In this document: piece by piece, positions 27,734-59,062 of the stretch
Layout: the number at the start of each line of letters is the position of its first letter
Numbering within the stretch: the first letter of the stretch is position 1
Virus record (IMG/VR): IMGVR_UViG_3300024258_000005
DNA: 64,000 bases
DNA from: a virus
Reading direction: 5' to 3' (one strand)
Translations under genes and position numbers: made by a program
Notes under the pieces: generated by a model
The model's database searches: none
What the model was told of the DNA's origin: nothing
What the model saw: only the letters and a program-made list of their open reading frames with translations

Positions 27734-28267
27734 TTATTGTCCTTTTATTTTATCTTTTGCTATATTTTTTTCTAAAGAAGAATTATAAACTTCAAGTATG
27801 TCAATTAATTCTAGTTCGATTTGACCCAGAAGTTTGTAAACAACTGGAGTACTAATTGTAAATATTAATTCATTTAGTACATTTAGATATTGTGAGTAAT
27901 GAGATAGATTTGCAATTAAATCCATATTCTCAGCACTTGTATCGTTCTTTATATTATCTTGAAGAATATCTATCTTTCCAGATAAATCAATAAGCTTATC
28001 ATATAAAGTGAACTGAAGAAATTTATCTTCAGTTCCTTCTAATTCATATGTAAACAGTTCTTCTTCTGTTGGCTGAACTTCTTGACCTTCTTCTTCTTCA
28101 GGTGCATCTTCCGCCGATTCTTCAGGTGCATCTTCCGCCGATTCTTCAGGTGCATCTTCCGCTGATGCATCTAATTCATCGTCTGAATTTAGTTCTTCAG
28201 CCTCTAACAGTAACAACAAAGGAAGATTAACCTCTTCCAATATTAGTCTCTGATTATAATTTAACAT
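27734..28267 (-). CDS. Acidic protein, ILE-leader family member
   Basis: MLNYNQRLILEE N-terminus; ESAEDAPE repeats. Confidence 0.75.
   Translation of the reverse strand: MLNYNQRLILEEVNLPLLLLLEAEELNSDDELDASAEDAPEESAEDAPEESAEDAPEEEEGQEVQPTEEELFTYELEGTEDKFLQFTLYDKLIDLSGKIDILQDNIKNDTSAENMDLIANLSHYSQYLNVLNELIFTISTPVVYKLLGQIELELIDILEVYNSSLEKNIAKDKIKGQ
28094..28165. repeat. 24-bp coding tandem repeat, 3 copies (SAEDAPEE)
   Basis: TTCTTCAGGTGCATCTTCCGCCGA twice plus a copy with one mismatch. Confidence 0.95.
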
Positions 28268-28302
28268 TAATCATCCTTTCTTGTTATTTATTTTATATCT
28301 AG

Positions 28303-28311
28303 TATTTGTTA
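28303..28311 (-). promoter_or_regulatory. TAACAAATA motif (candidate late promoter)
   Basis: Exact, 36 nt upstream of ATG 28267. Confidence 0.55.
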
Positions 28312-28331
28312 GAGACCTAAGTCCCTAACGT

Positions 28332-30041
28332 TTAATAAATTTTATAGAATACTATATTACCAGAATCATATATTTTTCGGAAATCATTATTATACATATT
28401 AACAGTTTCCGTTAATTCAGCGTTAAATATTGGTAATATTTTATGAAGCTTATGCTTTTGATACTTATTTCTTGATTCTAATAGATTCTGATTCTCTGGT
28501 TTAAAATAGAAATAATTTGGTTGAGATATATGACTAAAGATGAATCCAATTGTCTTATATAAATGTCCAGTGCTCCATCTTCGATTAGCATATGTTACTA
28601 AGCTTACTGGGTTTATTGTTTTTTCAAAATGTTTTAGTAGTTTAGAAGCTGCTCCTAATACTGTATGGTTAAGTTTAGAGCAAAATCTTATTAATTCATA
28701 TTCGTATTGTTTAGACATTCTAGCTTTACCAAACGTCATCAAAGATACTAATTCATCTTTATAATAAAGACCGTATCGGAATTTAGCATTACCATGTCCT
28801 TGTAAATGATTAAGGTCTTCGAATTCTCTAGCTGTTTTTGCGTCAACATCTTTTATAACTGTTTTTCTTCCAAATATTCTAGTAGTTCTTCCCATCTTAG
28901 AATTTATAACGCTTTTCCATATATCTTGTTTTGTATCCCATTCATTTTCAAAAATTTGAAATAATTGAATTTCTTTATTCTCTACTAATTCAGTTTTATC
29001 TAAATGTCTTTTTTTATTTTCTGTTGGATTATTAAACATTGAATATTTACTAATTCCTTGAGAATGAAACATTAATCCATTATATTCGATAGCAAAATTA
29101 TTTGGAACTAATATATCTAATTCTTTATTGATTAAAGTCCTATCACCTTGAATTGTTTCATCTGAATCGATAAACTCAATTATTTCTGTTTCAGCTTCAC
29201 TATTACCAGTACGTTTCGTAAATTCAATATTTAATTCTTCAAATTTTTTATAAACAATTGAAGAACTACAATTAAAATAAGCTCTAAATTTTTTACTTAA
29301 TATATGCTTCTGACTATCTAAGAAATTTTTTTCTATATAATCCGCATCATTCCAAAATATAGAATTATCTATTTTAGTTTCTATTATTTTTAGTTGAACA
29401 TCTTTTGATCCAAACGGTGAGTTAGAATTAAATTTTAACATATTGTTTTGATTTCTTATCTCCTGAACCAGTTTTGATTGGTACGGATAATCGCTACTAT
29501 ATCTTAAATTATTAGTATTTTTTATTTTATTTGAAATTATGGTGGACATAGAAGCTACTTCATTACCAAATAATTTTAAATTTGTTTTTTTAATTTTTGT
29601 AATTATTTCTGAATTTGAAAATACACACTTTGTTCCATATTTTTCTAAATTTGTTTTAATCACTTGATCTTTTTTCTCTTGAGTGGAGTTAACAGATTCT
29701 ACCCCATACTTTAATATACAAGTTTCTTTTATTTTTTGTTTAACTTGTTTACTTTTGCTCATACATTTAACACAACAATAATCCTTAAATTTATAATTTT
29801 GTTTGTTAAATTCTACTTGGTTATTGCAATTGTGATTCTTACAAATTAAATCATTATTAGATAATTCTTGTTTGATTATTTGATATCTGATTTTTATATC
29901 ATTTGTTATATAAAAATCAGTATAATTAAAAAGTATTTTTAAAGCAATTTGAATTTCTGTATCGTTTTTATATTTAGCAGATTCTAAATTATTTTTTAAT
30001 CTTCCAGAATTTAATAATATTTGTATATCATTTATCATCAA
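28332..30041 (-). CDS. Hef-like free-standing homing endonuclease
   Basis: Zn ribbon (CKNHNC...YCCVKC), KYG repeats, ELDILVP...IEYNG...H PD-(D/E)xK core, NHLQG...ELIRFC...ASKLLK...NRRWS...YQKH...IYDSG C-terminal domain. Confidence 0.8.
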   Translation of the reverse strand: MMINDIQILLNSGRLKNNLESAKYKNDTEIQIALKILFNYTDFYITNDIKIRYQIIKQELSNNDLICKNHNCNNQVEFNKQNYKFKDYCCVKCMSKSKQVKQKIKETCILKYGVESVNSTQEKKDQVIKTNLEKYGTKCVFSNSEIITKIKKTNLKLFGNEVASMSTIISNKIKNTNNLRYSSDYPYQSKLVQEIRNQNNMLKFNSNSPFGSKDVQLKIIETKIDNSIFWNDADYIEKNFLDSQKHILSKKFRAYFNCSSSIVYKKFEELNIEFTKRTGNSEAETEIIEFIDSDETIQGDRTLINKELDILVPNNFAIEYNGLMFHSQGISKYSMFNNPTENKKRHLDKTELVENKEIQLFQIFENEWDTKQDIWKSVINSKMGRTTRIFGRKTVIKDVDAKTAREFEDLNHLQGHGNAKFRYGLYYKDELVSLMTFGKARMSKQYEYELIRFCSKLNHTVLGAASKLLKHFEKTINPVSLVTYANRRWSTGHLYKTIGFIFSHISQPNYFYFKPENQNLLESRNKYQKHKLHKILPIFNAELTETVNMYNNDFRKIYDSGNIVFYKIY

Positions 30042-30100
30042 AATTTCCTTTTTAAATATAATTTCTATACTTAAATTACTTATCTTGAAAGATAAATAAT

Positions 30101-32320
30101 TTAATATGATTGACCACCATCATCTGAATTCTGCATTAGCATATCTTTAGCTTGCTTCTTAATAAATCCATCACCTGTTTGAATTAAATCATCCCAGTTC
30201 ATTTGAGGAATATAAAGCTTCAATAGCTCTTTAGGATCAATTGTAATCTCAGCAGATTTCAACATACCAATAATATTTGTAACTGAACTAACAAGTGCTT
30301 CATTTGCCTGTACTGTTAGTACTAGAGGCGGATTCAAAGAAAACGCATAGTAGTTACTTAATAGGAAATCATTTCTATCGTAATCATTATTTTCCAGAAC
30401 AATAGAGAATATGGAGTTCATCAATTGACTTAATGAATCATCAATGTTACCTTGAAATGAAGAAATAGTAGTAGCAAAACTTGTATTAAGATTAACTAAT
30501 GTTTCTCTTAAATCAACTTGATCGCCGATGTTTAAATAAACAGATGGAATACCAGTAGCTGCAATAAGTTCATTTCTTAAATCATTCATATCATTAAGGG
30601 GTAAGCTGCGATCACCCATAGGCATAACTTCCATATCAATAAATCTTTGACCATTTACTTGAATAGTTGCTAAGTCACGGAAATCAGTAATTACCTTACT
30701 AATATTCTTAACATTACTTAATGAGTCAAAACTAATACTTTTATTAGAAATATCTTTCTTTACTTTCTCAATGATCTCAGCATGATTCTTTTTATTACCT
30801 GCCTCAATAGTCCATTTACGAACTACAGATGCTCGTGATAATCTTGAAACAATACTTGACATTAAAGCTAGTGTGTACATCTTAACAGGTTGAATAATTG
30901 GATCAAATATACTAGTACCATATGGTCCAAACTTATCTACAGATGTACTAAAGTTAATTAGTCTATTAGGAGAAACGAATCTAAATTTTAGTTTAGCCCG
31001 TTCTTTAATCTTATGATAAAGAATAATCTTGATTGAACTTTCAACTGAATCGCTTAGATTTAATTCATCTAAATTATTAGCATGAGAATTACTAATTGTA
31101 CTGTTAAGTTTTTTAACAACGCCTTTAGTCATCTGATCAATAATTTCACCACGAATTTCTTCTTCTGAGTTATTAGTACTCTTTGAATTATCTTGTTGTG
31201 TAAATCTTTTGAATACATCAATTTCAGAACCTTGACCATCACCTACATCTTCAACAATAAGGTAACCATAAAGTATCCCATCTTGTTCAATTATAATAAC
31301 TTGATTGGGAGAAACATTTTTAAGGTAGATATCTTGAATAGATGAAAAATCTAAATCATTAATATCATCAAAATTATATTCTGAATTTTCACGAGTAATC
31401 TCTGAATAATAACCTGTATCAGCTTCTTCTATTTGAGAGCCAATTATTTTCTTACTTAAAAGGTCTTTAAATTGTTGAGCTGGAGTTGAAACAGGAACAA
31501 CTTCACCATCCTCAACACTCTCTTCAAGATATTCGCCTTCTTTTTCAACGTACTCTTCTGCGTCTGATTCAAATATACAATATCCAAAATCCGTTGACTT
31601 TGTTTTAGTTTTAACACCAGTAACATAACTTTCAGTGATAAGCTCACGATGTGATGCTATATCAGCTACAGTCTTTAAATTAAGAATCTCAATAAAACTA
31701 TTACCATACTTTAACATATCAGGAACAATTCTATTTTTCATCTTCTTCTGTAAGTCAAAGTACACAGTACTTGTCTTTAAAAAGTTTTCATAATGCTTAC
31801 CACTATCTTCTTTAATCGTTTGAAGAAATGCAACATTATTTGGATTTGCATTAATATTTAAAAATTGTTTTGTTTGTACATTTTTAATAAGAATATTATC
31901 AATATATACTTTTAACATACGATATGCAATAAAGTTAATATTTGGAATTTCTTCATAAAATTGATAACGTTTTACACGTTCAGTTGGTACACTAATTTCA
32001 CCTAGATTACCAAGGATATCACTATCAGCTGCACCAAGAAGTTTTTTAATATCTTCATCGACTTTTTCATCTTCTGGTCTGTCATCTTCTTGTGCATCAG
32101 TTCTCTTTTGATATAATTGTTTTGAAAGTTCTTGTACTTCAATACTTTGCATCTTAGAGCTATAAGTATTATATGTATTTAAATTACCTACAATATTGTT
32201 GTATAAATCGTTAAATTTATCATCCAGATCAGTTAATACTTTAACTGGTTCTAAAATACTTTGAGCAGAATTAGAAGTTGCAACTTCTTCTTCTGGTTGT
32301 TGTTCGTTTTGTCCCCACAT
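30101..32320 (-). CDS. Portal protein, T4 gp20-like
   Basis: RYQFYEEIP..., SRASVVRKWTIEAGN...AEIIEKV...K, LIAATGIPSVYL; 739 aa, near TerL. Confidence 0.75.
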   Translation of the reverse strand: MWGQNEQQPEEEVATSNSAQSILEPVKVLTDLDDKFNDLYNNIVGNLNTYNTYSSKMQSIEVQELSKQLYQKRTDAQEDDRPEDEKVDEDIKKLLGAADSDILGNLGEISVPTERVKRYQFYEEIPNINFIAYRMLKVYIDNILIKNVQTKQFLNINANPNNVAFLQTIKEDSGKHYENFLKTSTVYFDLQKKMKNRIVPDMLKYGNSFIEILNLKTVADIASHRELITESYVTGVKTKTKSTDFGYCIFESDAEEYVEKEGEYLEESVEDGEVVPVSTPAQQFKDLLSKKIIGSQIEEADTGYYSEITRENSEYNFDDINDLDFSSIQDIYLKNVSPNQVIIIEQDGILYGYLIVEDVGDGQGSEIDVFKRFTQQDNSKSTNNSEEEIRGEIIDQMTKGVVKKLNSTISNSHANNLDELNLSDSVESSIKIILYHKIKERAKLKFRFVSPNRLINFSTSVDKFGPYGTSIFDPIIQPVKMYTLALMSSIVSRLSRASVVRKWTIEAGNKKNHAEIIEKVKKDISNKSISFDSLSNVKNISKVITDFRDLATIQVNGQRFIDMEVMPMGDRSLPLNDMNDLRNELIAATGIPSVYLNIGDQVDLRETLVNLNTSFATTISSFQGNIDDSLSQLMNSIFSIVLENNDYDRNDFLLSNYYAFSLNPPLVLTVQANEALVSSVTNIIGMLKSAEITIDPKELLKLYIPQMNWDDLIQTGDGFIKKQAKDMLMQNSDDGGQSY

Positions 32321-32324
32321 TTAA

Positions 32325-34171: not shown

Positions 34172-37100
34172 TTATATTTTCTTAGCTGTTGTAATTGCTT
34201 CAGCAAATGCTGAATGTTTATCAATAGTATAAACATTCGTTTTACTTGCTTGTAGACCTTGAATAATACCCTGAAGGGCTGCTAATTGCGCCATCATTAT
34301 TTTTGATTGAGATTCGTTATTAATATCAAGTTTTGTCATCTTTTCTAACTCAATTGCTTCAAGTTTTAATAATTGCTCATCTTTTTTATCAATTACTCTA
34401 TCTTCGCTAATGTTCGCGAAAGTACTATCAATTCTTTGTTGAGATTTTTTTATCTTCATACGATTCTTTTCATACTGAGCTTCTTTCGCTTCTTCTGATG
34501 TTAATTGATGAGAAGAATTTTCCGGATCAGTTGCTACAACTTTACTTTTCTTAAACATACTACTATGGAATTTTTGATTTAACATATCACCATCAGCAGC
34601 AAGCATTGCCTTCTGGTCTTTTTTAGATAATGTTTCCCAATAAGCTCTTCCACCTCTTTCCCAAGTATTATCACCTGATCCCATAGTATAATCAATTAAA
34701 GCATTTCCTGAAACATTAGTAGCAACAGTCTTTCCTGTACGCTCTTTAAGTTCTAAACGAATAGCAGTTCTCACCATTAAATTTAACGTACCTTCTTTAA
34801 GCATATACATAAGTTCATCATTATCCATATCTTTAAAACGAGTACGAAGTTTTGCAATACTTTCATCTTTAAGTTGAGTACTAGTGTTGAAATGTATCAT
34901 TGCTTCATCTAAATTATTTTTTTGTTCTTTAGATATAGCACCATCATTCTTGATACCTGATTTACCTTTTTCTTCTAGTCTTTCTTCTTCAGCATTATCA
35001 AAATAAAATTCAGCATATTTATAAGCACTATATGCAACAGCCCCTACAGCAAGAGCAGCAGCAACATAAGGAATTCTTAGAACTGCCATAATAGCAGTAG
35101 GAAATACGCTACCAATATTTTTTAAAACACCCATAAATCCAAGTTTCTTAAAATTAAGTTTACCAAATAAATCTTTAGTACGTTGCCATAGACTAGCACC
35201 GCCAGCTGGAGCTTTAGGTTTTGGAACTGTACGTTTACCAGGACCGCCACCACCGCCACCGAAATCGTAACCGATGCCACCGAATCCGTCTAATAAACCA
35301 GACTCTTCTTGATTCTTTCTCATTCTTTTAGATATCTTTTTACGATTACCTTTAGTACAATTTCCACAAACACCATCACGAATTTCTTCTAAAAGGATAA
35401 GTTGTCTTTCTTGCATAGAGAATTTACGCTCTTGTTGTTCTTCCGACTTCTGAGAGTCCTGAGCGTCCTGAGCAGAAACATTTTCAGTTTCATCTTTATT
35501 CTTGCTACTAATAGATGATACTGATTGACCATCAGAATTTAAAAAGTTATCTAGGAAGCTATTACCACCTCTAGCTTTTTTAAGCTGTGAATCAATAAGT
35601 TTATCTTCATTTTTAGCGCTAAACATTTGTCCCCAAATACTAGGACTTGCATTTAATGTAGTCATCTGCTTCATCATTCGGTCTTTAATGTCTTCATCTT
35701 TGGCTGCATGATAATCATTACCAGCAAATGTACCGTCAAATTTATTCATACTCAATTCATCAAATTTAGAACGCTTTATTGGACCAGCCATTGATTTCAA
35801 TGATTCCATTTGTGAATGGTTATACTTTAAAAGTAATTCAAATCTATCAGGATAAGCTTTACCTAAATAATTAGCCATAAGATCCTGAGGACCCAATTCA
35901 GTAGCACCAACTGCGTCTCGTAAAGCTTCTTCACTGTTAAGAGTAGTATTACTCAAATCACTGGCCATCCAATCGTACATAACTTCTTGTAATCCGCGAT
36001 TCTTCTTACGTTTCTTCTTAGCACCCATTTTACCACTAGCTTGACGCTCCATGATAGTATCACCGTTTTCGTCTGTTTCATATACTTGATTTCCATCAGC
36101 GTCTTTTTCAAGATCACCACCAAACATGTCCTTCACCCAGTTATAGCCACCGGATGCCATCTTAGCAGTACCAGATAATACATTATACCCTGGAATATAA
36201 CCAAGTTTTTCATCAATAGTTTTAAAATGTGATTCATAAAAAGAATCATCAGCCATATTATTGATTTCATTCTCTTCACGAATTCTAGCGAGAAGACCAT
36301 GAGATGATGCTTGAGTAATACCGAAGCCATCAGTACGAATTTTTAAAAGTTCATGTGCTGAGAATCTACTAATTTCAGAAATAAGACCAAGAATAGATAA
36401 TTGTTTAGATTCAAATGTACTAGCTTTACTCATAATTTGAGAGGGTGTTGTATGTATAGCTTGAACTAAAGAACTTGAAACACCCATCTTCTCAGCAAAT
36501 TGTTCTTCACTTTGTAATGCATCAACACCTTTAATTTTACTATTCGCAGTGTTATACATTTCAGTAACTGATTTACCTTGCAGTGTAGCACTTAAATAAG
36601 TACCAGGATCGAAAGTACTTAAAGCGTTAGCCATACCCATTTCGATTCCACCAAAGAATCTATTAGTTAAACTTACATCTTTTGTTGAAGAGTCTGCAGA
36701 GTGTATGGTACCATCATCGCCAAATGTATCACTTAAAGTCTTTTGACCTCCGTAACCACCTTCTTTATTTTTACGAGATTCATTATCTACAGACTCAGCT
36801 GCAATAAAAGGTAGAACTGATGTGTGACCTTCAATCATTGCTAAAATATTAGCAATAAGAGATTCACCAGGTTTCATCTGATGTTGATTTTGCAAACGTT
36901 TAATTTGCATTTGTAGCATACGCGTACTACCATAAGTAGTTTCTAGTTCATGTGGACTAGTACCCATAGTAGTCATTTGTGTACGATTAATTTCTATTTT
37001 AGTACTTGAGTCTTTACTCATATACTTATTTAACGCACCGGCACCTTTCTGCATTGCTATCATAGAAGCAATACCCATACCCATTGGGCTCAATCCAGAG

Positions 37101-37711: not shown

Positions 37712-37747
37712 ACAAGAGTATCTAATCGGCTACATGCCGATTAGATA
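37712..37747 (-). terminator. Hairpin terminator with TCTTGT tail
   Basis: 12-bp perfect stem TATCTAATCGGC/GCCGATTAGATA overlapping the terL stop, then cTCTTGT. Confidence 0.75.
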
Positions 37748-39700
37748 ATTACTCATATCATATTCTTTTAGATCAGGTTTCTTTTTATCACTTTTAAAAT
37801 GAAAACCATCTTCGTTCTCAACCCATTCATCTGATTCTTGACCAGTACTACCGCCCGTGCCAATTGTAACACTGATAAAGTCCATTATAGTTTCAGGAGT
37901 TAAAGCAAATGCTTGTATCTCACCATCTACTTGAAGTTCACCACTCTTAATCATTAACTTACGAACATATAAACAGAAGTTATAAGCCATAACAACATCA
38001 TCATGTTGTCCACGCATTGCTTCAATACGTCCATTAGCTTTTTGTTCTAGGTTTCGTAGTTCGTCAATAAGCATATCACTATGAAATAAATCAGGACGAC
38101 CATTAACTTGATTCATCAGTTCATTAAACATCTGATCACGTTTACCATTACCCATTTTACCAGCATTTGAAGTATATAAACCAAATGTATAATCACCAGT
38201 TGGTTCACCTTTACCATTTTTTACTTCTTCTTGATATAAATATGCTTCATAATCGAAGTCATCAACCAATGGATCATTATAAAGTAATTCCTCAACTGTT
38301 TCTTTACCAATCGAGTTTCTCTCAATAATGACTCTTAGTGTTTCTTCGTTAACATTATATAGTTTACTTAGTCCTTGGACCGCAGCTTTTACAAGAGCAG
38401 CAAATCTTTTAACAACAGAGAATTTACCTTTCCATGCACCTACTTCTTGACCTGAAACAGCATGTACTAAACTCAAAGCACTATAATCCGAATTGATACC
38501 AGCACTCATAGCGGTATCCACACCAAGTAAATATATTTCACCTGGAATTAATTCAGAGAACATTTCAAGTTTATGACCAAAAGGCAATTGCATCTCATGA
38601 CTAGATTTTTTAGGAACAAGCTTACATATAACATCATCAGAGAATATAGATGTACTTGAACCAAGAAATACTAAGTCAAGTTCCTGATTAATCTTACGTT
38701 GATTAAAGTTCAGTTCCTTACATTGCTTATTATACCAATCTTGATCTCTATGTGTATCACTCCAAAGAATTTTCATACTAATAAATGCATTCTTTTCAGG
38801 ATCATCCATAGTAACTTCATAACCATCATAAAGAACTTTATTCTCATAATCATATATATCATCAAACTTAACTGATCTTTGTAATATGCCGTAGAACCAG
38901 TTACCACCAGCACCATTAGGTGTTGATACCGCAATCATACAAGTAGGATAACCAAATTTCTTAGCAAATATTTTCGCTGTTGAAATAGATGGTTGCATTG
39001 CGGAATAAACAATATCCATATGTTTAATAAAGGCTGCCTCATCCAGGATTATAATACTTCCTGAAAGTCCACGACCAAGAGTATCAGGATCAATACTACC
39101 AGAAACGAACATAGTATCAAACATACTCTTATTCTTTAAGTGAAAGAATGTAGTTCTTTCGGCTTTAGAAGCATTTGGTACTCTCATCCAATTAGGAAGC
39201 TTACTCATCATTTCTTTTAAACGAGCAACTGCATCCTTACCACGATTACTATCTAATGTTAGGAATGCTATCTTAATACCAGGAAAGAATACCATACAAT
39301 ACAATGCATATAGTAATGCTAGTGTAGTCTTACCAATCTGGCGAGAACTAATAAACGCGACATTATCTTGCAATTCAAATAATTTAAAAAGTAATCTAAA
39401 TTTATTTGAACTTTGCCATTGTTCTGAACTTCCCATGTGAATAAATCCACCAGTTACGGGAGTATATGCATATTTCTCTACCCAATACAACGGAGACATT
39501 TTACATTTCATCCATTCTATCATTTGCTCATTAGCCGACATATTTTTATTGTAATGATCTTCTCCTAAATACTCAGGAACCTTTATTACAGGTTTTTCTT
39601 TTACAATAATACCTTCCACTACCTCAACTTCTGAAGCTGGGTCTTTCCATATATCATTATCTTCTTCTAAAGACTCTTCATCGTTTAGTATTTCTGACAT
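37730..39700 (-). CDS. terL: Terminase large subunit, T4 gp17-like
   Basis: SSRQIGKTT Walker A, IILDEAAF Walker B, STPNG, GVDTA and HDDVVMA RNase-H-like nuclease motifs. Confidence 0.93.
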   Translation of the reverse strand: MSEILNDEESLEEDNDIWKDPASEVEVVEGIIVKEKPVIKVPEYLGEDHYNKNMSANEQMIEWMKCKMSPLYWVEKYAYTPVTGGFIHMGSSEQWQSSNKFRLLFKLFELQDNVAFISSRQIGKTTLALLYALYCMVFFPGIKIAFLTLDSNRGKDAVARLKEMMSKLPNWMRVPNASKAERTTFFHLKNKSMFDTMFVSGSIDPDTLGRGLSGSIIILDEAAFIKHMDIVYSAMQPSISTAKIFAKKFGYPTCMIAVSTPNGAGGNWFYGILQRSVKFDDIYDYENKVLYDGYEVTMDDPEKNAFISMKILWSDTHRDQDWYNKQCKELNFNQRKINQELDLVFLGSSTSIFSDDVICKLVPKKSSHEMQLPFGHKLEMFSELIPGEIYLLGVDTAMSAGINSDYSALSLVHAVSGQEVGAWKGKFSVVKRFAALVKAAVQGLSKLYNVNEETLRVIIERNSIGKETVEELLYNDPLVDDFDYEAYLYQEEVKNGKGEPTGDYTFGLYTSNAGKMGNGKRDQMFNELMNQVNGRPDLFHSDMLIDELRNLEQKANGRIEAMRGQHDDVVMAYNFCLYVRKLMIKSGELQVDGEIQAFALTPETIMDFISVTIGTGGSTGQESDEWVENEDGFHFKSDKKKPDLKEYDMSNYLIGM

Positions 39701-44705: not shown

Positions 44706-44714
44706 TATTTGTTA
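44706..44714 (-). promoter_or_regulatory. TAACAAATA motif (candidate late promoter)
   Basis: Exact, 24 nt upstream of ATG 44682. Confidence 0.55.
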
Positions 44715-46154: not shown

Positions 46155-46346
46155 TTATGTTAAAGTATAAGCAGTTGCTACTAAAGCTCCTATACCAGCA
46201 GCTGCTGGTATAATACTGCCATCTTTTTTTTCTAGTATATCGTTTTCTTTTTTCAATAATCGATGATCAACATTTATTGTCATTCCTGGATGATTCTTAC
46301 GCGTAGCATCCATATATTCTAATATTAATTTTTTATTTAGTTTCAT
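46155..46346 (-). CDS. ILE-leader family protein (63 aa)
   Basis: Start moved to ATG 46346 (AAGGA RBS): MKLNKKLILEY; hydrophobic C-terminus. Confidence 0.7.
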   Translation of the reverse strand: MKLNKKLILEYMDATRKNHPGMTINVDHRLLKKENDILEKKDGSIIPAAAGIGALVATAYTLT

Positions 46347-47410: not shown

Positions 47411-48127
47411 TTAAAGCAGCCAAATGTAAGAATCTGGAGGCGTGCGTTTTAATTCGGTAATAGTTTCTCTACGAAGCTCTTTAGCATCGTTTATAAGTTC
47501 TTCTGCATTTAATTGAATTGATCCAAATGGTGTATTGAAGTTATTAAACTTCTTACGTATTTTACCAATAGCATTCATTATATAACTTGTACTAAGATCT
47601 CTAAATGAATCGTACAGTGCTGGACTAATACTAGTTGGATCAGCATGCGCAACATTTAACACAACTACAAATTCTCTTGATAAATAAGAATAACCTGCTC
47701 TTTGCATTTGTATCTTATCAGGTGGGAGGAATTTCCACGTATTATCAGCCTGAGTTATTGAAGCCATATCTAAATAATTCTGGCGGACTAAAAAGTCTGT
47801 AATATCTCCTGCAACTGATTGTGAAAACATTTGATTATAATCTACATAGTTTGCTTGTTCGATAATTGAACTAATACCAAGAATCTTATAATCAAAGTTT
47901 GTAAATTGGTAAGTAATAATAGGATCTTGGCTAATTATATTACCTTCAAACATTTTATAATATTTTACAAGAGGATCATAATTACTGAACTCAGGCATTA
48001 CGTGCATTTTTATTTTTTCCATAATTTGTTGATCTGTTAACTCTAGAGCCATTACATCAGCACCAAGTTCTGTTTTAATATAATCAATTATATTATCCCA
48101 TGATTGCCATGAAGTACATGTTGCCAT
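47411..48127 (-). CDS. Neck/head-completion protein, T4 gp13-like
   Basis: DYIKTELGADVMALELTDQQI...GKIRKKF...FGSIQLNAEELINDA. Confidence 0.75.
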   Translation of the reverse strand: MATCTSWQSWDNIIDYIKTELGADVMALELTDQQIMEKIKMHVMPEFSNYDPLVKYYKMFEGNIISQDPIITYQFTNFDYKILGISSIIEQANYVDYNQMFSQSVAGDITDFLVRQNYLDMASITQADNTWKFLPPDKIQMQRAGYSYLSREFVVVLNVAHADPTSISPALYDSFRDLSTSYIMNAIGKIRKKFNNFNTPFGSIQLNAEELINDAKELRRETITELKRTPPDSYIWLL

Positions 48128-49103: not shown

Positions 49104-49478
49104 TTAATTTAAAGCACCTGCTGCTAATACACCAGTACCTAATGCAGCAGCTCCGCCTAATATATCAGCAGATCTATTTTTATTGTTTAATAAATCAGTT
49201 GTAGCTCTATCAGCTACTTTATCAATTTGTGGTGAATATTTATTTGCTAAATATGCACCACCTATTGCACCTGCAACTGGTCCAGCAATTAACGCTGCAC
49301 TAGGAGCGGCAACACCTGCACCAACTAATCCAGCTACGCCACCTAATCCTAATTTAGTACCAGCAAGAGTACCAACCGTAGTATTAAATCCTTTATTAAA
49401 AGGAGTGTTCATTTCTTTTGGAGTAGCATATTGAAAATTTTCAAGTATAAGACGCTTATCTAATTGTACTTTCATCAT
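49104..49478 (-). CDS. ILE-leader family protein with glycine zipper
   Basis: MMKVQLDKRLILEN; GLGGVAGLVGAGVA...GAIGGAY. Confidence 0.8.
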   Translation of the reverse strand: MMKVQLDKRLILENFQYATPKEMNTPFNKGFNTTVGTLAGTKLGLGGVAGLVGAGVAAPSAALIAGPVAGAIGGAYLANKYSPQIDKVADRATTDLLNNKNRSADILGGAAALGTGVLAAGALN

Positions 49479-50241: not shown

Positions 50242-50886
50242 TTATATTTTTTTATATTTTTTTACTATATTTTTTAACTTGATAGCATTATTTCGTTTTG
50301 TTATAATTCTTTTAGGAACTATTTGAGGAGATGTTAATGGTGTTTTTCTTTTTATATCACCAGGTTGTACTAAAGGTTTTGATCTATTATCCATTGCTGT
50401 TTGAGTAGGCTTATTTAAATCTCTTGGCTCCCTTATAGGCTCTTTTTTATAAAAAGCATTATTCTTTTTTTGAGGACCATGTTGCATACCAGTATCTACA
50501 CCGACAGGAGGAGGATTTTCTTTTCTCTTCTCATCAGCTACCCATTGCTTAGTTTTAGCAACACCTTTATTTAAAGCACTTATAGTATTTGTAGCACCTT
50601 TTGAAACAGCAGCTTTATTATTTAAAGCTAATGCTCCTGCACCTAAAGCTGTCCCAGCCATTAAACCTTTAGTTGCAACATTTTCCCAATCTGTCCCAGG
50701 AGCTTCTGTAACATGATTTACTGTATGAATATTTGTAACGGGTCTATTTATAGGAGTGTCATCTGATAATGCGTCTGTAGCTAAACCACCGGCCACTAAA
50801 CCACCAATACCAGCTAAATATTTTCCAGAATGTTTCTTTAAATGTTCTGAAAAATTTTCAAGTATAACATCTTTATGTAATTTCAT
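50242..50886 (-). CDS. ILE-leader family protein with basic Pro/Lys-rich C-terminus
   Basis: MKLHKDVILEN; close paralog of 51214-51872. Confidence 0.8.
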   Translation of the reverse strand: MKLHKDVILENFSEHLKKHSGKYLAGIGGLVAGGLATDALSDDTPINRPVTNIHTVNHVTEAPGTDWENVATKGLMAGTALGAGALALNNKAAVSKGATNTISALNKGVAKTKQWVADEKRKENPPPVGVDTGMQHGPQKKNNAFYKKEPIREPRDLNKPTQTAMDNRSKPLVQPGDIKRKTPLTSPQIVPKRIITKRNNAIKLKNIVKKYKKI

Positions 50887-51213: not shown

Positions 51214-51872
51214 TTAATTTATTAATATTTTTCGCTTATTTATAACTCGTTGAGGAACAATCGCTGGGCCAGTTAAAGGTTTTTTGCGCTTTATATCACC
51301 TGGTTGACTAAGAGAATTTAATGAAACATCTTTAGCCACTGAGGTTGGTTCATTTAAATTTCTATGTAAAGGTTTAACCTTTTTGTAAAAAGTGTTATTT
51401 CGTTTTTGAGGCCCATGAGTCATTCCTGTATCAACTCCAATCGGAGTAGGGTTTTCTTTACGTTTTTCTGAAGCAACCCATTTTTTAGTTGAATCAACTC
51501 CTCTATTTATTGCAGATACTGCAGTATTTATACCACCTTGAGTTGCTTGACCCATAGAAGTATTTATTTTATCTGCAGCATTGATAGTATTGGTTGCAAC
51601 CTTTGCAGCACCAGATGACACATCTTTAATACCATTAACATTTTTAGATATCAATCCAGCTACACCAAGACCGGCTCCAGTCAATAAACTTTTGTTTGCA
51701 ATATCATTCCAATCTGTATTACTAGGAGATTCTTTAATATTATTAGTTATATGTTGAGTAGGTTCTTCTTCGCCATCAAAAGCATTAGTCAATCCAACAC
51801 CAGCTAAAATACCCGCACCAGCTAAATATTTTCCAGAAAATTTTCTAGAATTAAATTTTTATTAATTATCAT
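51214..51872 (-). CDS. ILE-leader family protein interrupted by a -1 frameshift near 51837-51844
   Basis: ATG 51872 with RBS reads MIINKNLILENF then stops; the -1 frame continues SGKYLAG..., colinear with paralog 50242. The track's TTG start at 51792 is probably an artefact. Confidence 0.7.
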
Positions 51873-51928
51873 TATAATTTCCTTTATTAAATATTTGTTA
51901 ATAAAGGAAATTATAATGATAATTAATA
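51860..51928. repeat. Perfect 31-bp inverted repeat with 7-nt loop covering the RBS and ATG
   Basis: 51860-51890 is the exact reverse complement of 51898-51928. Confidence 0.95.
51892..51900 (-). promoter_or_regulatory. TAACAAATA motif in the loop of the inverted repeat
   Basis: Exact, 20 nt upstream of ATG 51872. Confidence 0.6.
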
Positions 51929-51930
51929 TA

Positions 51931-51958
51931 GGCATTGCAGATATATATCTGCAATGCC
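51931..51958. terminator. Palindromic hairpin (possible bidirectional terminator)
   Basis: GGCATTGCAGATATATATCTGCAATGCC, followed by TTTCTTT on the plus strand; just after the stop at 51964. Confidence 0.55.
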
Positions 51959-51963
51959 TTTCT

Positions 51964-52596
51964 TTATTGTTGTGTTAAACTATTTAAATAGTTTTCTGCG
52001 CCTTGAACACCTTGCTTAAGATTACCACTTATAGTGTCACCAACATGACCAAGTTTATCACTTAGCTCACTAGCACCTGATTTAAATTTATTAGTATAGT
52101 CAGCTACTTTATCAATACTAGCATCTTGCATAGTTGTTGTATTATTAGCAACACCAGTAGCATTATTAGCAACACCAGTAGCATTATTAGCAACACCAGC
52201 AGCATTATTAGCAACACCAGTAGTGTTATTAGCAACACCAGCAGCGTTAGCTACAATTCCTTGGTGAGCATTAGCAACCGATGCCGCATTATCAGCAATA
52301 CCAGAATTTGTATGATCTACAAATTGTTTACCAGCATCATAAGCCATTTTACCACCAGCACCAACACCAGCTAAAGCACCAGCACCAACTAAACGTTGAC
52401 CCCAACCTTCTTCTAGAAGATCACGAACACCTTGCATAACTCCTTCTTCAACAAGCATTTTACGAATTTGCATTGTTGATTCATTAATCATGATTTTACC
52501 TTTAAGTAAATCTTTTTCAGACATACCCTCGGCTTCTTCAAGAAGACCTAAAGAATAACGATTACGAACATTTTCTAAGATTAAATCTAATTTCAT
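51964..52596 (-). CDS. ILE-leader family protein, extended-propeptide subgroup, with heptad repeats
   Basis: MKLDLILEN...GKIMINES...LLEE; (GVANNAT)n. Confidence 0.8.
   Translation of the reverse strand: MKLDLILENVRNRYSLGLLEEAEGMSEKDLLKGKIMINESTMQIRKMLVEEGVMQGVRDLLEEGWGQRLVGAGALAGVGAGGKMAYDAGKQFVDHTNSGIADNAASVANAHQGIVANAAGVANNTTGVANNAAGVANNATGVANNATGVANNTTTMQDASIDKVADYTNKFKSGASELSDKLGHVGDTISGNLKQGVQGAENYLNSLTQQ
52141..52245. repeat. 21-bp coding tandem repeat, 5 copies (GVANNAT-type heptad)
   Basis: ATTATTAGCAACACCAGTAGC and variants. Confidence 0.95.
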
Positions 52597-53267: not shown

Positions 53268-54329
53268 TTAATTAAATAATTGTAATTGACAGTTTGATAA
53301 TTGACTAAATCTAAATGTAGTTAAACTGATATCTAAATCAAATACATAGTAAGGTACTAGTGTTCCATCAATATCTTTATCAATTACCATTTCAGGTGTT
53401 ACTAAAGGAATTTCAATAAACTCTACTCTAGCATCGTTTATAGTTGAATCATCTACCATAAAAATAGATACAGGTAATCCAAGTATTTGATAATCAGATA
53501 CAGGAACTTGTAATTGATTCAAATCTATATCGAAATCACCTTCTTCTAATATATAACTTCTTTTAAGTTTATTCTGTCTATCACTAAAAATATCATTATT
53601 CATATCAATTAAAATAGGTAAATCTTTACTACCATCAACTATATTACCAACAATTTGTATACCATTTACAATTCGATTATCAATAGTAACATTTCCTATA
53701 ACATTAGGAACCTTTAATCGCACTTCGATATTAACATTGATTGAATTCTCACCATCAACATTCTTATTTTTTTGAATTGAATTTACTCTAAATATAGGAG
53801 AGATTTCATATAATGCATATCCTTCTATTTTCTGATTAGTTGTTCTATAATACAAACCTTCTGTATCATCAACTGTATCCCAATCTTTAATAAAATCATC
53901 TACATGTATATAAGCATTGTACTTATAACTATAGAACATCATATTCTTAGGAAACGCACTTATAAGTTGGTTATGGTAATTTAATATATCACTAACACCA
54001 GATAAGTTAATTTTTATATCCATTTGAATAGTGACCCATTTAAAGTCAATTATTACAGAATCTTGTTTAGTATGGTTACTCGCAACTGCCATAGTAGTAT
54101 CAGCGTTATGCTGAACCGCAATATAACGAAAGAAATCTCTATTATCATCAGTTGTTATATCAGTAAGGTTTACCATACACATAGGATATTTTTTAACATG
54201 ATCTTCATATAATTTATAATTTAGATAAGCTTTATCTGCATATGAAAACTGATAATGTTGTATGTTTGGAAAGGTACTACTTATAAACTTTTTAAAAGAT
54301 TTTAAGTAGTCCAGGTAATATGAATACAT
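53268..54329 (-). CDS. Tail completion/sheath-stabiliser-like protein (T4 gp15-like, tentative)
   Basis: FSYADKAYL...YPMCMVNLTDITTD pattern; structural-gene context. Confidence 0.35.
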   Translation of the reverse strand: MYSYYLDYLKSFKKFISSTFPNIQHYQFSYADKAYLNYKLYEDHVKKYPMCMVNLTDITTDDNRDFFRYIAVQHNADTTMAVASNHTKQDSVIIDFKWVTIQMDIKINLSGVSDILNYHNQLISAFPKNMMFYSYKYNAYIHVDDFIKDWDTVDDTEGLYYRTTNQKIEGYALYEISPIFRVNSIQKNKNVDGENSINVNIEVRLKVPNVIGNVTIDNRIVNGIQIVGNIVDGSKDLPILIDMNNDIFSDRQNKLKRSYILEEGDFDIDLNQLQVPVSDYQILGLPVSIFMVDDSTINDARVEFIEIPLVTPEMVIDKDIDGTLVPYYVFDLDISLTTFRFSQLSNCQLQLFN

Positions 54330-54906: not shown

Positions 54907-54923
54907 AAAACAAATCTCTTAAA

Positions 54924-57900
54924 TTAGAGATTTGCTTCGAGACCTGCACCTTGAAAGAATATTTTAATCATATTTAAAGATGTTAAATCTTCAGATTCGA
55001 TATCAATATCAAACGATTCAGGTATTTCATTGTTTCTAACAATTTCATTAATCATTTTCTTTTTAGCTTTACTAGCATCCGACTTCATAGCATGCATTTC
55101 TTTTATAAGACCATAAGGTCTTTTTGAAAGTAATGAATTCATATCGTATAGACCAATCTTAATAGCACCGGTACCTTCTTTAGTACCACTTCGACCTTGA
55201 CCAGTTATCCAGTTCTTAGAAGTATTTAAAGAACCACGAGTTGATGACATTGCTTGAGGAAAATGTTCTAGCATATTGATTGGTAAGATACCAACAGGAA
55301 CTGCTCTAGTTGTAACAATACCATTATTTTCAAGAATCTTAACTTTCTCATTCAAAGGGACACCAAGTACATCAGCAGCTTTTTGGATATTAGAAATAGT
55401 TAACTTATTTTTAAATGGTGGTACAATAGCAGGGAATGCTGGATTATTTAAAGGATGACTATTATTGATAATTTTAGAGATTTCTTTTGTTGATTTTTTA
55501 AAGAACTCATTAAGTTGTTCAATTATAATATGATCTTTTGTTTCATCCAAATGACCAAACACTTCCATAACTAGTTTTTTAATAGCTAAAATTTTACCTT
55601 GTTTATTAAGTTCTAAACAAGCTTCATTAAGATAATAAATAACTTTACCTAAGTACATGGCTAGAAGTATACTAGGATTCTTACGAGAAATAATACTCAG
55701 AGGAGTACCAATAAATTCAATCTTAAGTCCAGTTTCCTCTGCAATAGGTTCCATATCTTTACCCATAACATATTGAACAGTACCTTTACCACCTGAACTA
55801 GTCAGTGTAAACTTTGAACCATTAATAACAGGATTAACCTTTTCAATATAAACTTCAATAATAGCTCCATCAATTTCTTCTTGATTGAACTTATGACCAC
55901 CAATAGTTAATGTTTCAGAATTTTCTAAATGTCCAATACAATCAATATAATCATCATTATTGTCGGTATCAGCTTTACATGCGGCAGCTTTTTTAGAAAT
56001 AGTATCAGTTGTTTGTGAATGTAATGCTAAAATTGGTTTAGGTAATTTTTTAGTATTTAATTTAACAACGATTTCTTTTATTGTTCCACCAGGACTAAGA
56101 TAAGTCTTAGTTAAACCGTCTTGAACTAATCCAACCATTGTAGATTCTTCATCGTCCTCAAGGTCATCATCAATAAATTCTTCTGATGTATTATACTTTA
56201 TTAAAACATCACCTGCTTTCGTAATATTACCTTGTTTTAAATTTAATTCTGATAATTTAGCACCAGTTGTAAATTTAATATTAATCTTTTGAAGAACTTT
56301 ATTAGAAAATTTATCAGTCAGTGTATCACTAACAACCCAACCATCTTCATAATTCATTCCAAGATATCCCATCTCTGCAACAACAAGGTTTTTACCAATA
56401 GCTAACTTACCTGTTTTAAGTGAATCTGTTGTAGCTAAGATTTGACCTTCTTTAACTTTCTCACCAGCGCTTACTAAAGAACTATATTTTGTAGCAATAT
56501 AAATACCACGCTTTGTACGCGATTTAACAGGTGTTATAGCGATAGTTTCTACTGACTTATCATTGTATTGCACTTTGATAGTTTCACTTGTAATCGCTTT
56601 AATAACGCCTTCTTTCTTAGCTTTCTTAGAAAATCTATCTGAAACTAAATGAGGAACATAACTTTCAAAACCTGTTTGAACTAAAGGAACATCCGGCTTC
56701 TCAAGTTGAATAAACTGAGCAGTTTGTTGATTACCCATTACACGACGAGTTGTATCATCATATTCAAAGAAAGGACTTAATGATTCAATAGGACTAAGGT
56801 TCTCAAATGCATTACTATCATTAGTAAATTCTCTACGAGAAATTGATCCAAATCTATCATCAATACGTGCACCATTGGTGAGTGTTTGATTTATACCAAT
56901 ACCACCATACTCATTAGTTGCAGTAGGAGCAATTGTACCAAAATAACTAGGATTTGTATCTCTACGATTAAGAGTAACATCTTGTTTACGAACGTTACCA
57001 ATACCTACTTTAGTTACTTTTAAACTTAACATCATTTCCTCAACAGGATTCAACGTTTTAGTGTACTGAAGTATACCAGCATCTAAAAGATTCTTAATAA
57101 TATAATCATTTTGCATATATATTTTTTCATTACTTAATTGCTTACGAGCTTTAAATTTAGAAAGTGCTTGATGCATTTGATTATAAGCTACACTTGTAAT
57201 AGTCTCAGACATTCTTAAACGATAATTATCTAAATCATATTGACTCTTAGAAGTTCTTTGTCCTAGTAGTTCAACCATTTCATTAGTGAATACACCTGGT
57301 AGATCTGTACTTTGACCAGCATCTTCAAGAATCTTTTTTGTACTTCCATCAATAAATTTATATTCAACATCATATAAATTCTTTGCAGATGTAGCACCTT
57401 GTTTATTAACAATAACTTTCATCATTGCATTGCTAAGACCTTCAAGTGTAGGAGAAAATATTTCATTGTTTAATTTATAAGTGTTAAGACCATTTGCATA
57501 GTTCCATTGGTGCTGATTCTTAGGATATAAACACAAATATTGTCTTGCACCATCTTCTGTTGTAAAGTTCATTACAATACCAGCGTCATTGTCTTTTTTA
57601 TCTTTAAATTGAAATTCTAATTTCATAATACCAAATGCAGATTTCATAGTACTTCTATTAATTAAAAGAAATACTGCTAAAGGAACATTCTTTCCAAGGA
57701 TTCTCATTTCATAGAAAGGCTTTGAACTTTTACTCTTTTTAATAATATCTTCACCCGATACTAAATTATTAATTTTATTATATATATTGAAAATAAATTC
57801 ATTTAAATGAGCTTTGTTGATATGATTAACATCACCATCTTCAGTCTTCGAATAGATATAATCTGATCCACCACGAAGATACGCGTACTCTACAATCTCA

Positions 57901-58022
57901 GAAGTATTTCCAAGTCCCGCTTTTCTTCTTTCATAGAATTGGAGAACTTTAACTTGTTCACCATCTATTGTTTTTGAGACCTCATTTTTGAGATCGATTA
58001 TGTAATCGTTTTTTACAGCCAT
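54924..58022 (-). CDS. rpoB: Phage multisubunit RNA polymerase beta subunit, C-terminal part
   Basis: NPVEE...RDTNPSYFGTIAPTAT, SPFFEYDD.RRVMG, GKNLVVA.MGYLGMNYED, GSKFTLTSSGGKG, PLSIISRKN, MLEH, KIGLYD, KSD colinear with bacterial beta motifs but divergent. Confidence 0.9.
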   Translation of the reverse strand: MAVKNDYIIDLKNEVSKTIDGEQVKVLQFYERRKAGLGNTSEIVEYAYLRGGSDYIYSKTEDGDVNHINKAHLNEFIFNIYNKINNLVSGEDIIKKSKSSKPFYEMRILGKNVPLAVFLLINRSTMKSAFGIMKLEFQFKDKKDNDAGIVMNFTTEDGARQYLCLYPKNQHQWNYANGLNTYKLNNEIFSPTLEGLSNAMMKVIVNKQGATSAKNLYDVEYKFIDGSTKKILEDAGQSTDLPGVFTNEMVELLGQRTSKSQYDLDNYRLRMSETITSVAYNQMHQALSKFKARKQLSNEKIYMQNDYIIKNLLDAGILQYTKTLNPVEEMMLSLKVTKVGIGNVRKQDVTLNRRDTNPSYFGTIAPTATNEYGGIGINQTLTNGARIDDRFGSISRREFTNDSNAFENLSPIESLSPFFEYDDTTRRVMGNQQTAQFIQLEKPDVPLVQTGFESYVPHLVSDRFSKKAKKEGVIKAITSETIKVQYNDKSVETIAITPVKSRTKRGIYIATKYSSLVSAGEKVKEGQILATTDSLKTGKLAIGKNLVVAEMGYLGMNYEDGWVVSDTLTDKFSNKVLQKINIKFTTGAKLSELNLKQGNITKAGDVLIKYNTSEEFIDDDLEDDEESTMVGLVQDGLTKTYLSPGGTIKEIVVKLNTKKLPKPILALHSQTTDTISKKAAACKADTDNNDDYIDCIGHLENSETLTIGGHKFNQEEIDGAIIEVYIEKVNPVINGSKFTLTSSGGKGTVQYVMGKDMEPIAEETGLKIEFIGTPLSIISRKNPSILLAMYLGKVIYYLNEACLELNKQGKILAIKKLVMEVFGHLDETKDHIIIEQLNEFFKKSTKEISKIINNSHPLNNPAFPAIVPPFKNKLTISNIQKAADVLGVPLNEKVKILENNGIVTTRAVPVGILPINMLEHFPQAMSSTRGSLNTSKNWITGQGRSGTKEGTGAIKIGLYDMNSLLSKRPYGLIKEMHAMKSDASKAKKKMINEIVRNNEIPESFDIDIESEDLTSLNMIKIFFQGAGLEANL

Positions 58023-58918
58023 GATAATTCCTTATTAAGTGCTTCATTTAGTATTTTATCTACTATTTTATAATCTTTGTATTTTATTCGAAGTATTTGA
58101 ATATTATTATTATAACAATATTCATTCTTTAATGTATCATTTTTTTGAACTTTTAATAATCCAAGATTTCCTCCAAATTTTGAAGATTCTTTAAAATGCT
58201 GTTTACCATCATATTCAATACAAATATTATGTTCAGGCAAATAAAAATCAAATCTTAGGTTTCCTAAATCAATAAATTTTTTTTCTCGAATAAATTTATA
58301 ATTGTATTTTTTTAAATAATTATAAATTTTTAATTCACCTTTTGATAAATTACATGTTGGACAACCTACACCGTTTAAATGATCATTGGCACACTGCAAA
58401 TAATCACCATGAATTTTACATGTTATAAAACTTTTTTTATATGTTCCACTATAAAAAAAGTTTTCATATGTATATAAATTATTATGTTTTATTTTAGCTT
58501 TTTGTTCAAAATCTTTTAATGTATGCATTTGGGAACATTTAAAACAAGCTGAACCTGCAAGGTGAACAGAAGGTGTTTGATTAAATTCTCCATGAATAGG
58601 ACATATAATGATTCCTTTTTTATACGATTTAGTGTATAAAAATTTTGAATAATTATAGGTATTTTTATGTATAACATTTGATTTTATTATAAAATCTTCT
58701 AATTTTGCAACTTGTTGATTAATACACTGCTTACAACAACCAGTTCTTGAATATATATGTTTATACGGAGTGGTTGTAAATTCACCGTGAATTTTACAAA
58801 TTATAATAATATTTGATGTATTATTTTTATATTCAACTTTGGAATAATCATAATTTCCTAAATGAATTTTTTTTGATAAGGTTAAAAACTTTAAACATCT
58901 AACATTAAGTTTAGCCAT
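58013..58918 (-). CDS. Homing-endonuclease-like protein (DUF723-type Zn repeats plus DUF559/Vsr-like nuclease)
   Basis: Three IxCxIHGxF...HxxGxxCxxC repeats; LRFDFYLPEHNICIEYDGKQHF. Confidence 0.8.
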   Translation of the reverse strand: MAKLNVRCLKFLTLSKKIHLGNYDYSKVEYKNNTSNIIIICKIHGEFTTTPYKHIYSRTGCCKQCINQQVAKLEDFIIKSNVIHKNTYNYSKFLYTKSYKKGIIICPIHGEFNQTPSVHLAGSACFKCSQMHTLKDFEQKAKIKHNNLYTYENFFYSGTYKKSFITCKIHGDYLQCANDHLNGVGCPTCNLSKGELKIYNYLKKYNYKFIREKKFIDLGNLRFDFYLPEHNICIEYDGKQHFKESSKFGGNLGLLKVQKNDTLKNEYCYNNNIQILRIKYKDYKIVDKILNEALNKELSWL

Positions 58919-58919
58919 A

Positions 58920-59062
58920 TTATTTCCTTTGTTCTGCTCTTAACATTTTTTCAGAACTTGTCAAGTTTAAAGGGATTTTGGTTTACCAGTTTTCACTCGC
59001 TCCTCCACACCTAATCTATCTGCTTCTAGAAGAAGCTCAGTTTTATTTATTATTAATTTCAT
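58920..59062 (-). CDS. Micro-gene of the ILE-leader family with a probable 1-nt frameshift
   Basis: MKLIINKTELLLEA... stops at 58967 (31 aa); the -1 frame reads on to TAA at 58920, 1 nt before the next ATG. Confidence 0.55.

Follow-up and report, generated by a model that had tools for sequence, protein, structure and literature searches.

A candidate T4-type capsid-targeting and protease-cleavage leader on an array of small proteins in an uncultured jumbo phage

Fifteen intact open reading frames (ORFs) in the virus record IMGVR_UViG_3300024258_000005 (IMG/VR) share one short N-terminal leader, M-(K/I)-x-x-(L/I)-x-K-x-L-I-L-E, on proteins of 59–227 amino acids (aa) that are otherwise mostly unrelated. 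The stretch analysed, here called the window, is 64,000 nt long and comes from what is, by its gene content, an uncultured jumbo phage with an AR9-type RNA polymerase. The leader is probably a T4-type capsid-targeting and prohead-protease propeptide of head-internal proteins, with a probability of about 0.68. The evidence is the conservation of the leader over changing cargo, its likeness to the N-termini of T4 head proteins, and a matching box on the capsid protein of relatives, one of which encodes a gp21-type protease.

The long ORFs of the array region all lie on the minus strand. The positions given for the leaders in the initial annotation are therefore the low, stop-codon ends of the genes, and the leaders lie at the high ends (Table 1). 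That annotation counted about 17 leader genes. The leaders are real and 15 of the genes are intact, but the gene starting at 51872 is frameshifted and the ORF at 59062 is doubtful. Leaders are 8–13 aa long in the window and 8–14 aa in relatives. An (A)GGA-type ribosome site stands 5–10 nt upstream of every intact leader ORF except the one starting at 51167. The proper start of gene 46155 is ATG 46346, where a ribosome site is present, rather than the upstream GTG. The ORF at 59062 is treated as doubtful because it has 31 aa only, lies between two homing-endonuclease genes, and has no counterpart in relatives. Another reading of it, as an opening exon of the polymerase gene, was rejected, since the RNA polymerase gene of relatives directly follows its upstream gene with no such ORF.

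The leader is concentrated at protein N-termini. A loose pattern, [LIVMYK][IL][LIQ]E with its last residue at position 8–13, occurs in 15 of 79 genes, against 0.48 expected from the frequency of the pattern elsewhere in the same proteins (binomial P ~2e-18); this tally includes a weak extra match at 21523–23421 (profile score 5.1) and omits gene 46155, which was scored from the GTG. Residues are numbered here from the Glu, which is P1. With a 9-column profile (P8 to P1'), the 13 top scores among ~20,000 positions in the window proteins are all N-terminal, and two variant leaders rank just below them.

Constraint on the leader points to the protein level rather than to DNA or mRNA. Synonymous codons are mixed in about genome proportions, Leu being written with three of them at P4 and with five at P2, and Ile with three at P3; the DNA upstream of leader genes is unrelated apart from the ribosome site; and conservation is anchored on the Glu and not on the start codon, since leader length varies. 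A feature of the nucleic acid itself, either a common translation-initiation region or a recombination cassette for gene shuffling, would suit the AT-rich gene starts, which are conserved over ~36 nt, and the T-even internal-protein locus is known to be recombinationally plastic. Such a feature is nevertheless highly improbable here, because each conserved Leu and Ile position is coded by varying synonymous codons, the upstream DNA shows no conservation, and the anchor is the Glu of leaders of differing length.

Homologues of the virion protein encoded within the array were found in 17 metagenome loci and five IMG/VR loci at 42–77% identity, and the genes around these homologues carry the same leader. 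A leader profile across relatives, a check proposed in the initial annotation, collected 73 leader ORFs from the window and the relatives' loci. Their mature parts, the sequences behind the leader, form 45 clusters, and 12 window cargos are singletons. The leader is thus far better kept than the cargo attached to it. The consensus over 57 non-redundant leaders has Glu at P1 (100%), Leu at P2 (91%), Ile at P3 (89%; Ile or Leu in 97%), Leu at P4 (56%), Lys at P6 (77%) and Ile, Leu or Met at P8 (78%). Position P1' is Asn, Ser, Glu or Ala in 82% together, and 58% of the 57 leaders are exactly 12 aa long.

This leader resembles the capsid-targeting sequence (CTS) of phage T4. The CTS of T4 IPI, IPII, IPIII and Alt is removed by the prohead protease gp21, and the diverse T-even internal proteins have only this tag in common (PMC9026906; PMC3012670). 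The T4 tag is 10–19 aa long, with targeting governed mainly by its N-terminal residues and processing by P3 and P1 (PMC9026906). Asp at P1 blocks cutting but not targeting (PMC9026906; PMC3012670). N-termini of T4 head proteins were read from the T4 record, and are MEGLIE (gp67), ..ELVLE-N (gp68), ..QLLIE (gp21), MLKEQLIAE (gp22), MAKINELLRE (gp24) and MKTYQEFIAE (IPII and IPIII). The last of these is the tag that the initial annotation had attributed to T4 internal proteins, and the record confirms it. The leaders of the window fall within the ~7–20 residues from Met1 expected of a gp21 substrate and end in the gp21 cutting motif (L/I)-x-E. Both systems place a short propeptide at the N-terminus, with a Met-Lys start, a hydrophobic P4, Ile at P3 and Glu at P1. 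In both, one tag is borne by otherwise unrelated small proteins, the cargo set changes quickly between relatives, and a related box is found on shell or core proteins (gp24, gp22, gp21, gp67 and gp68 in T4; the capsid protein of relatives here). The systems differ in number, with 15–16 tagged genes in ~25 kb here versus four in T4, and in consensus, where Lys stands at P6 here and P2 is Leu. Here many of the cargos are Gly/Ala-zipper or disordered proteins, whereas those of T4 are small, basic and DNA-associated. The phage studied here has AR9-type RNA polymerases, and the function of its leader is predicted from sequence.

Across the array region, relative G001 (167 kb) keeps synteny with the window, and it provides the probable link to head maturation. 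A 282-aa protein of G001 (149646–150494) passes the Pfam cut-offs for both Peptidase_S77 (PF03420; T4 gp21) and Peptidase_S80 (PF20034; phiKZ gp175 family), scoring 40.9 bits against Peptidase_S77 where the cut-off is 27. It also matches phrog_207 (5e-30) and the T4 gp21 structure PDB 5jbl. The 517-aa capsid protein, encoded 10 kb downstream of the protease, is a homologue of the AR9 major head protein (7e-10; phrog_20655). Its N-terminus is an 11-residue stretch ending in LILE and followed by N-Y-D. The start has the form M-x(7)-LILE-N-Y. Among 108 homologues of this capsid protein, 99 have an LILE box ending at residue 8–13, and P4 to P2' read L-I-L-E-N-(Y/F) in 80–100% of them. Several leaders of the window continue with N-F or N-Y as the capsid proteins do, and the Lys at P6 is not found in the capsid proteins. 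The capsid-protein homologues lie on contigs of 260–290 kb, and the capsid protein of the clade has no tblastn match in cultured phages.

Two leader-bearing proteins of ~260 aa precede the G001 capsid gene. The interval from the protease to the capsid gene (G001 152400–159238, locus L034) encodes three leader-bearing proteins of 191–267 aa that start M-(I/V)-L-E-I-N-K and whose leaders hold two L-x-E sites. These three proteins are scaffold or core candidates by position, since T4 gp22, of 269 aa, is encoded between gp21 and gp23.

The mature parts in the window span 47–216 aa, range in isoelectric point (pI) from 4.1 to 10.2, and contain one cysteine in total across 16 mature parts. The initial annotation stated that sequences downstream of the leader diverge completely. 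Most mature parts are indeed unrelated, but BLASTP joins 45390, 48709 and 51964 into one three-member family through a ~60-aa N-domain, the only link that it found, and uncharged Gly/Ala-rich stretches of 17–55 residues are common to 9 or 10 cargos. Some cargos have no hydrophobic stretches and are acidic, basic or disordered. Ten cargos compared with PHROGs and Pfam gave nothing beyond weak Gly-zipper matches. The 176-aa cargo (gene 49484) matched only unnamed viral clusters in the ESM Atlas, where its model has low confidence (predicted local distance difference test, pLDDT, 0.42).

The similar sizes, tandem arrangement and recurrent Gly/Ala-zipper stretches, with no cargo of known fold, could also suggest a fast-diverging paralogue family of small membrane proteins, in which the N-terminus serves insertion, oligomerisation or chaperone docking and has nothing to do with the head. 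This explanation is improbable, as the box is also borne by 99 of the 108 capsid-protein homologues, leaders are also found on cargos that lack hydrophobic stretches and are acidic, basic or disordered, and T4 core proteins share the design. As a signal peptide the leader would be much too short, and it is charged. Nor does it resemble a Sec, Tat or lipoprotein signal, in which a hydrophobic core of 7–15 residues follows a basic N-region: Lys, Asp and Glu are spread over its whole length, and no more than three hydrophobic residues stand in a row.

The alternative offered in the initial annotation, a leader like those of ribosomally synthesised and post-translationally modified peptides (RiPPs) that is recognised by radical S-adenosylmethionine (SAM) enzymes, fails on adjacency, core composition and cargo size. 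The window does encode at least nine CxxxCxxC enzymes, with an island of radical SAM genes at 8.5–21.3 kb, and as in RiPP systems one short N-terminal sequence precedes many downstream sequences. The leader genes, however, are 6–31 kb from the island, the nearest more than 6 kb away and most 20–30 kb, and no CxxxCxxC ORF of at least 150 aa is found within 10 kb of the arrays in eight relatives' loci. With a single cysteine among 16 mature parts, there is no modifiable core, the cargos are protein-sized (up to 216 aa), and the box is present on the capsid protein. Recognition by the radical SAM enzymes is thus very improbable. An N-terminal tag of phage RB43, read from the RB43 record for comparison, is a Ser-rich sequence with no relation to this leader, and it does not occur in the window.

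The family of 45390, 48709 and 51964 carries a putative extended propeptide. Its members share a helical N-domain of ~65 aa, and their C-terminal parts do not align. Each putative (L/I/V/S/N)-x-E site keeps an invariant Glu in 17 members, of which 14 are relatives of the three paralogues; these residues are E8, E20, E21, E27 and E39. The AlphaFold model of 51964..52596 has helices at residues 2–24, 27–50 and 53–75 within residues 1–75, with pLDDT 76–87 over residues 1–50 and low confidence in the remainder. A profile of the N-domain detects 184 clusters in a library of 1.84 billion proteins, nearly always at residue 1, in proteins of 47–314 aa. The 140 C-terminal parts examined behind the N-domain form 88 clusters.

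T4 core proteins gp67, gp68 and gp22 are cut into small pieces by gp21. Like the extended family they are helical and acidic and have stacked (L/I/V)-x-E sites; unlike them, the module here precedes 88 or more different C-terminal parts, and it has no detectable homology to them beyond an eight-residue box. That box is ELVLENVE at residues 9–16 of T4 gp68 and DLILENVR in the extended family. Homology of the whole N-domain to gp68 was rejected, since only the box aligns (hhalign probability 1.4%). The 177-aa leader protein (27734..28267) has a very acidic mature part (pI 4.1) with a repeat and a helical tail. Like the three proteins that have stacked Glu sites, it looks more like a component of the core or scaffold, which degradation would remove.

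The phiKZ-type giant phages use (S/A/G)-x-E motifs and mostly long propeptides (PMC5694885). These phages (phiKZ gp175, 201phi2-1 and SPN3US gp245; PMC5694885, PMC7411985, PMC10052503) share with the present phage a jumbo genome, multisubunit RNA polymerases, a protease that cuts after Glu (putatively so here), long propeptides with several internal sites, paralogues with identical N-termini (SPN3US gp53/gp54) and, in some ejection proteins, membrane segments. Most of their propeptides exceed 100 aa, only one SPN3US propeptide having T4 length, whereas leaders here are mostly 12 aa and carry a T4-like motif, (L/I)-x-E. Nearest to the phiKZ style is the 65-aa extended family, but its longest module of ~65–70 aa, with (L/I/V/S/N)-x-E sites in which Leu or Ile dominates, falls short of phiKZ/SPN3US propeptides of at least 80 aa with (S/A/G)-x-E sites. 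Overall, the arrangement is apparently a T4 design in a phage with AR9-type transcription.

Under the T4-type reading, the leader genes would be transcribed late, together with virion genes. The upstream half of the leader, with its hydrophobic P8, Lys P6 and Leu P4, would attach the pre-proteins to the prohead core during assembly. After closure of the shell, a serine protease of the T4 gp21/phiKZ gp175 type would cut after the Glu of L-I-L-E. Short leaders would exit the head, and proteins with the 65-aa multi-site N-domain would shed the whole domain in pieces. The mature parts would remain with the DNA as internal or ejection proteins or, if core or scaffold (e.g., the acidic 177-aa protein), be degraded. 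In the initial annotation the leader was seen as a portable tag that loads cargo into the head for injection. Its T4-like length, Met-Lys start, Ile P3 and Glu P1 favour head loading, as do the L-I-L-E-N-(Y/F) box on the capsid homologues and the gp21-type protease in a relative; the sufficiency of the tag and the injection of the cargo are, in contrast, what we infer. The odds that the leader suffices for targeting are about even, and ejection of most cargos into the host is possible but rather doubtful.

Several points weigh against this reading. The link to protease and capsid runs through relatives that are 42–83% identical in the neighbouring virion protein, and the window phage's own protease and capsid genes lie outside the window. 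Cleavage, packaging and ejection are all predictions from sequence comparison, as are docking and retention in the head. No cargo has a recognisable function in PHROGs, Pfam or the ESM Atlas. AR9, the nearest cultured phage, has no genome-wide N-terminal enrichment of the motif; AR9 was therefore rejected as a proxy with a known virion proteome, and no existing proteome of virions can stand in. Packaging in the clade does not always need a leader, since the virion-type RNA polymerase subunit lacks one. Capsid and small proteins share only P4 to P2', so the box may be a cutting site only, with targeting located elsewhere.

The last two points favour a narrower explanation, in which L-I-L-E marks prohead-protease substrates without being a head address and any incorporation depends on the mature parts. 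In one form of it, the site would keep, e.g., membrane-active Gly/Ala-zipper proteins inert until head maturation, and the uncharged Gly/Ala stretches might indeed be harmful if free. Lys at P6, the hydrophobic P8 and the fixed 12-aa length nonetheless exceed the needs of a gp21-type site, the corresponding upstream residues carry targeting in T4 (PMC9026906), and mature parts in 45 clusters are too diverse for another common docking surface. A role in cutting only is therefore considered unlikely.

The genes around the array also speak for the head-propeptide reading. For the RNA polymerase beta-like subunit, the closest match is to the beta subunit of the virion RNA polymerase in Bacillus phage AR9. 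The virion protein in the middle of the array is homologous to AR9 gp111 and phiR1-37 g333, and in AR9 gp111 adjoins the head maturation protease and the major head protein. Neighbours of the array are the terminase, this virion protein and the virion-type RNA polymerase subunit, with AACA-type boxes in front. Megablast of 24 kb against cultured phages gave no match, so none is close at the DNA level. A terminase-based search of IMG/VR and a scan of species genomes with the window virion protein found no relative, and tblastn with the AR9 or G001 protease and capsid protein found neither in the window or the loci. In AR9 itself (locus L018, AR9 72584–103165, and AR9 248338–249102), L-x-E stands close to the start of the head maturation protease (..FLIIE at residue 11) and of small proteins encoded beside it, and one protein starts M-E-E-N-K-M-R-L-I-V-E-N followed by a Gly/Ala stretch, like the window cargos.

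The sequence TAACAAATA occurs eight times in the window, always on the coding strand (1385, 12125, 18371, 28303, 44706, 47379, 48173 and 51892), a count only weakly above chance, being reached in 3 of 100 shuffles. The last five copies stand 20–45 nt upstream of genes, which are leader genes, the virion gene 47411–48127 and the endonuclease-like gene 46333–47349. The AR9 late promoter consensus is AACA-N6-TA/G (PMC5312081). As TAACAAATA contains the AACA of this consensus, late expression of the array is plausible. A perfect inverted repeat of ~23 nt at 51870–51925 is centred on TAACAAATA; the hairpin would mask the start of the 51872 gene, whose ribosome site and initiation codon are in the right arm. 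A strong 13-bp terminator hairpin lies just upstream of this repeat, at 51930–51959.

The leader ORF that starts at 51872 has 16 codons before its stop; ORF 51214–51792 carries the reading on in the -1 frame. The joined product of 51214–51872 is a paralogue of 50242–50886. At the junction, GAA AAT TTT C, there is an in-frame slippery heptamer of canonical form, A_AAT_TTT, with a run of four T versus five in the paralogue; this heptamer arises in every leader that continues E-N-F. An error of assembly, a gene that has died and a programmed -1 shift would each explain the break.

The window encodes several homing endonucleases. Three HNH/homing-endonuclease genes lie at 58013–60200 and 28332–30041. 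The two at 58013–60200 separate the RNA polymerase beta gene from the gene upstream of it; in relatives L004, L006 and L013 these flanking genes abut. G001 has well over a dozen copies of this endonuclease family.

Sites resembling the leader box were also seen in larger proteins. The best internal profile match is K-R-S-Y-I-L-E at residue 262 (score 16.1) of a 353-aa protein kept in the clade (53268–54329), a possible internal or C-terminal processing site. It was set aside from the leader set because homologues keep only a looser I-L-x-E. Two large ORFs without a family match, 34172–37645 (1157 aa; G+C 0.33–0.37, above the rest of the window) and 30101–32320 (739 aa), have N-terminal A-I-Q-E (residues 8–11) and S-I-L-E (residues 21–24), respectively. 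Both may be additional sites for the protease, in virion proteins of large size.

Table 1. Leader genes and associated features of the window. Leader N-termini are at the high coordinate of each gene; scores are those of the 9-column profile.
Feature	Coordinates	Strand	Remarks
Leader gene, 177 aa	27734..28267	-	MLNYNQRLILE at 28235-28267; profile score 19.7
Leader gene, 87 aa	39866..40129	-	12-aa leader ending LILE, 40094-40129; profile score 20.1; just upstream of large terminase
Leader gene, 227 aa	41515..42198	-	MKIQIRKYILE at 42166-42198; profile score 15.3; basic cargo, (EIS)5 repeat
Leader gene, 61 aa	44497..44682	-	Variant leader ending IIQE, 44644-44682; profile score 14.6
Extended-propeptide family member 1, 136 aa	45390..45800	-	MKLDLILE and ~65-aa N-domain with stacked [LIV]-x-E sites
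Leader gene, 113 aa	45803..46144	-	12-aa leader, 46109-46144; profile score 25.0; uncharged Gly/Ala stretch in cargo
Leader gene, 63 aa from ATG 46346	46155..46346	-	10-aa leader MKLNKKLILE; C-terminal Gly/Ala hydrophobic stretch
Leader gene, 157 aa	48226..48699	-	12-aa leader, 48664-48699; cargo rich in Gly-zipper
Extended-propeptide family member 2, 126 aa	48709..49089	-	Leader MKLDLILE
Leader gene, 123 aa	49104..49475	-	MKVQLDKRLILE then N-F, 49440-49475; best profile score, 25.2; Gly/Ala-zipper cargo
Leader gene, 176 aa	49484..50014	-	12-aa leader ending KILE; cargo without hydrophobic stretch, predicted disordered
Leader gene, 70 aa	50014..50226	-	12-aa leader; single uncharged Gly/Ala stretch
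Leader gene, 214 aa	50242..50886	-	10-aa leader MKLHKDVILE then N-F; Gly/Ala stretches; very basic tail, pI 10.2
Leader gene, 59 aa	50988..51167	-	12-aa leader then N-Y
Frameshifted paralogue of 50242-50886	51214..51872	-	MIINKNLILE-N-F
Extended-propeptide family member 3, 210 aa	51964..52596	-	Leader MKLDLILE; C-terminal Gly/Ala stretches, GVANNA repeats
Doubtful leader-like ORF, 31 aa	58967..59062	-	Ends LLLE; flanked by two HNH endonuclease genes
Virion structural protein within array	47411..48127	-	Homologue of AR9 gp111
RNA polymerase beta-like subunit	54924..58022	-	Closest to virion RNA polymerase beta of AR9; no leader
Large terminase subunit	37730..39700	-	
TAACAAATA boxes	28303-28311; 44706-44714; 51892-51900	-	Candidate late promoters

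The T4 tag is in use for loading foreign proteins into capsids. Mullaney and Black reportedly described the T4 capsid targeting sequence in 1996, and the principle is said to have been in print since then. The idea of a conserved tag with evolving cargo has already been published for T-even internal proteins (PMC3012670, PMC9026906). No paper was found that describes enlarged leader arrays in uncultured jumbo phages. The array may, tentatively, be a rapidly diversifying arsenal of capsid-delivered proteins under one universal tag. Many would be Gly/Ala-zipper membrane inserters, injected as changeable membrane-active or anti-defence effectors, and the 65-aa module, in at least 184 clusters, would be a second detachable loading handle.

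If the leader is a T4-like tag, it would provide a sequence rule to list the head-internal or injected proteins of a clade of uncultured 260–290 kb phages that has no virion proteome and no known cultured member. The cargo types found here, Gly/Ala-zipper and disordered proteins, are without assigned roles at infection. A second tag with a clear consensus, and a longer multi-site handle, would widen the capsid-loading toolbox, and the rules of targeting versus cutting would become testable by comparison. The T4 principle of address and clip would then be enlarged about fourfold outside the T-even phages.

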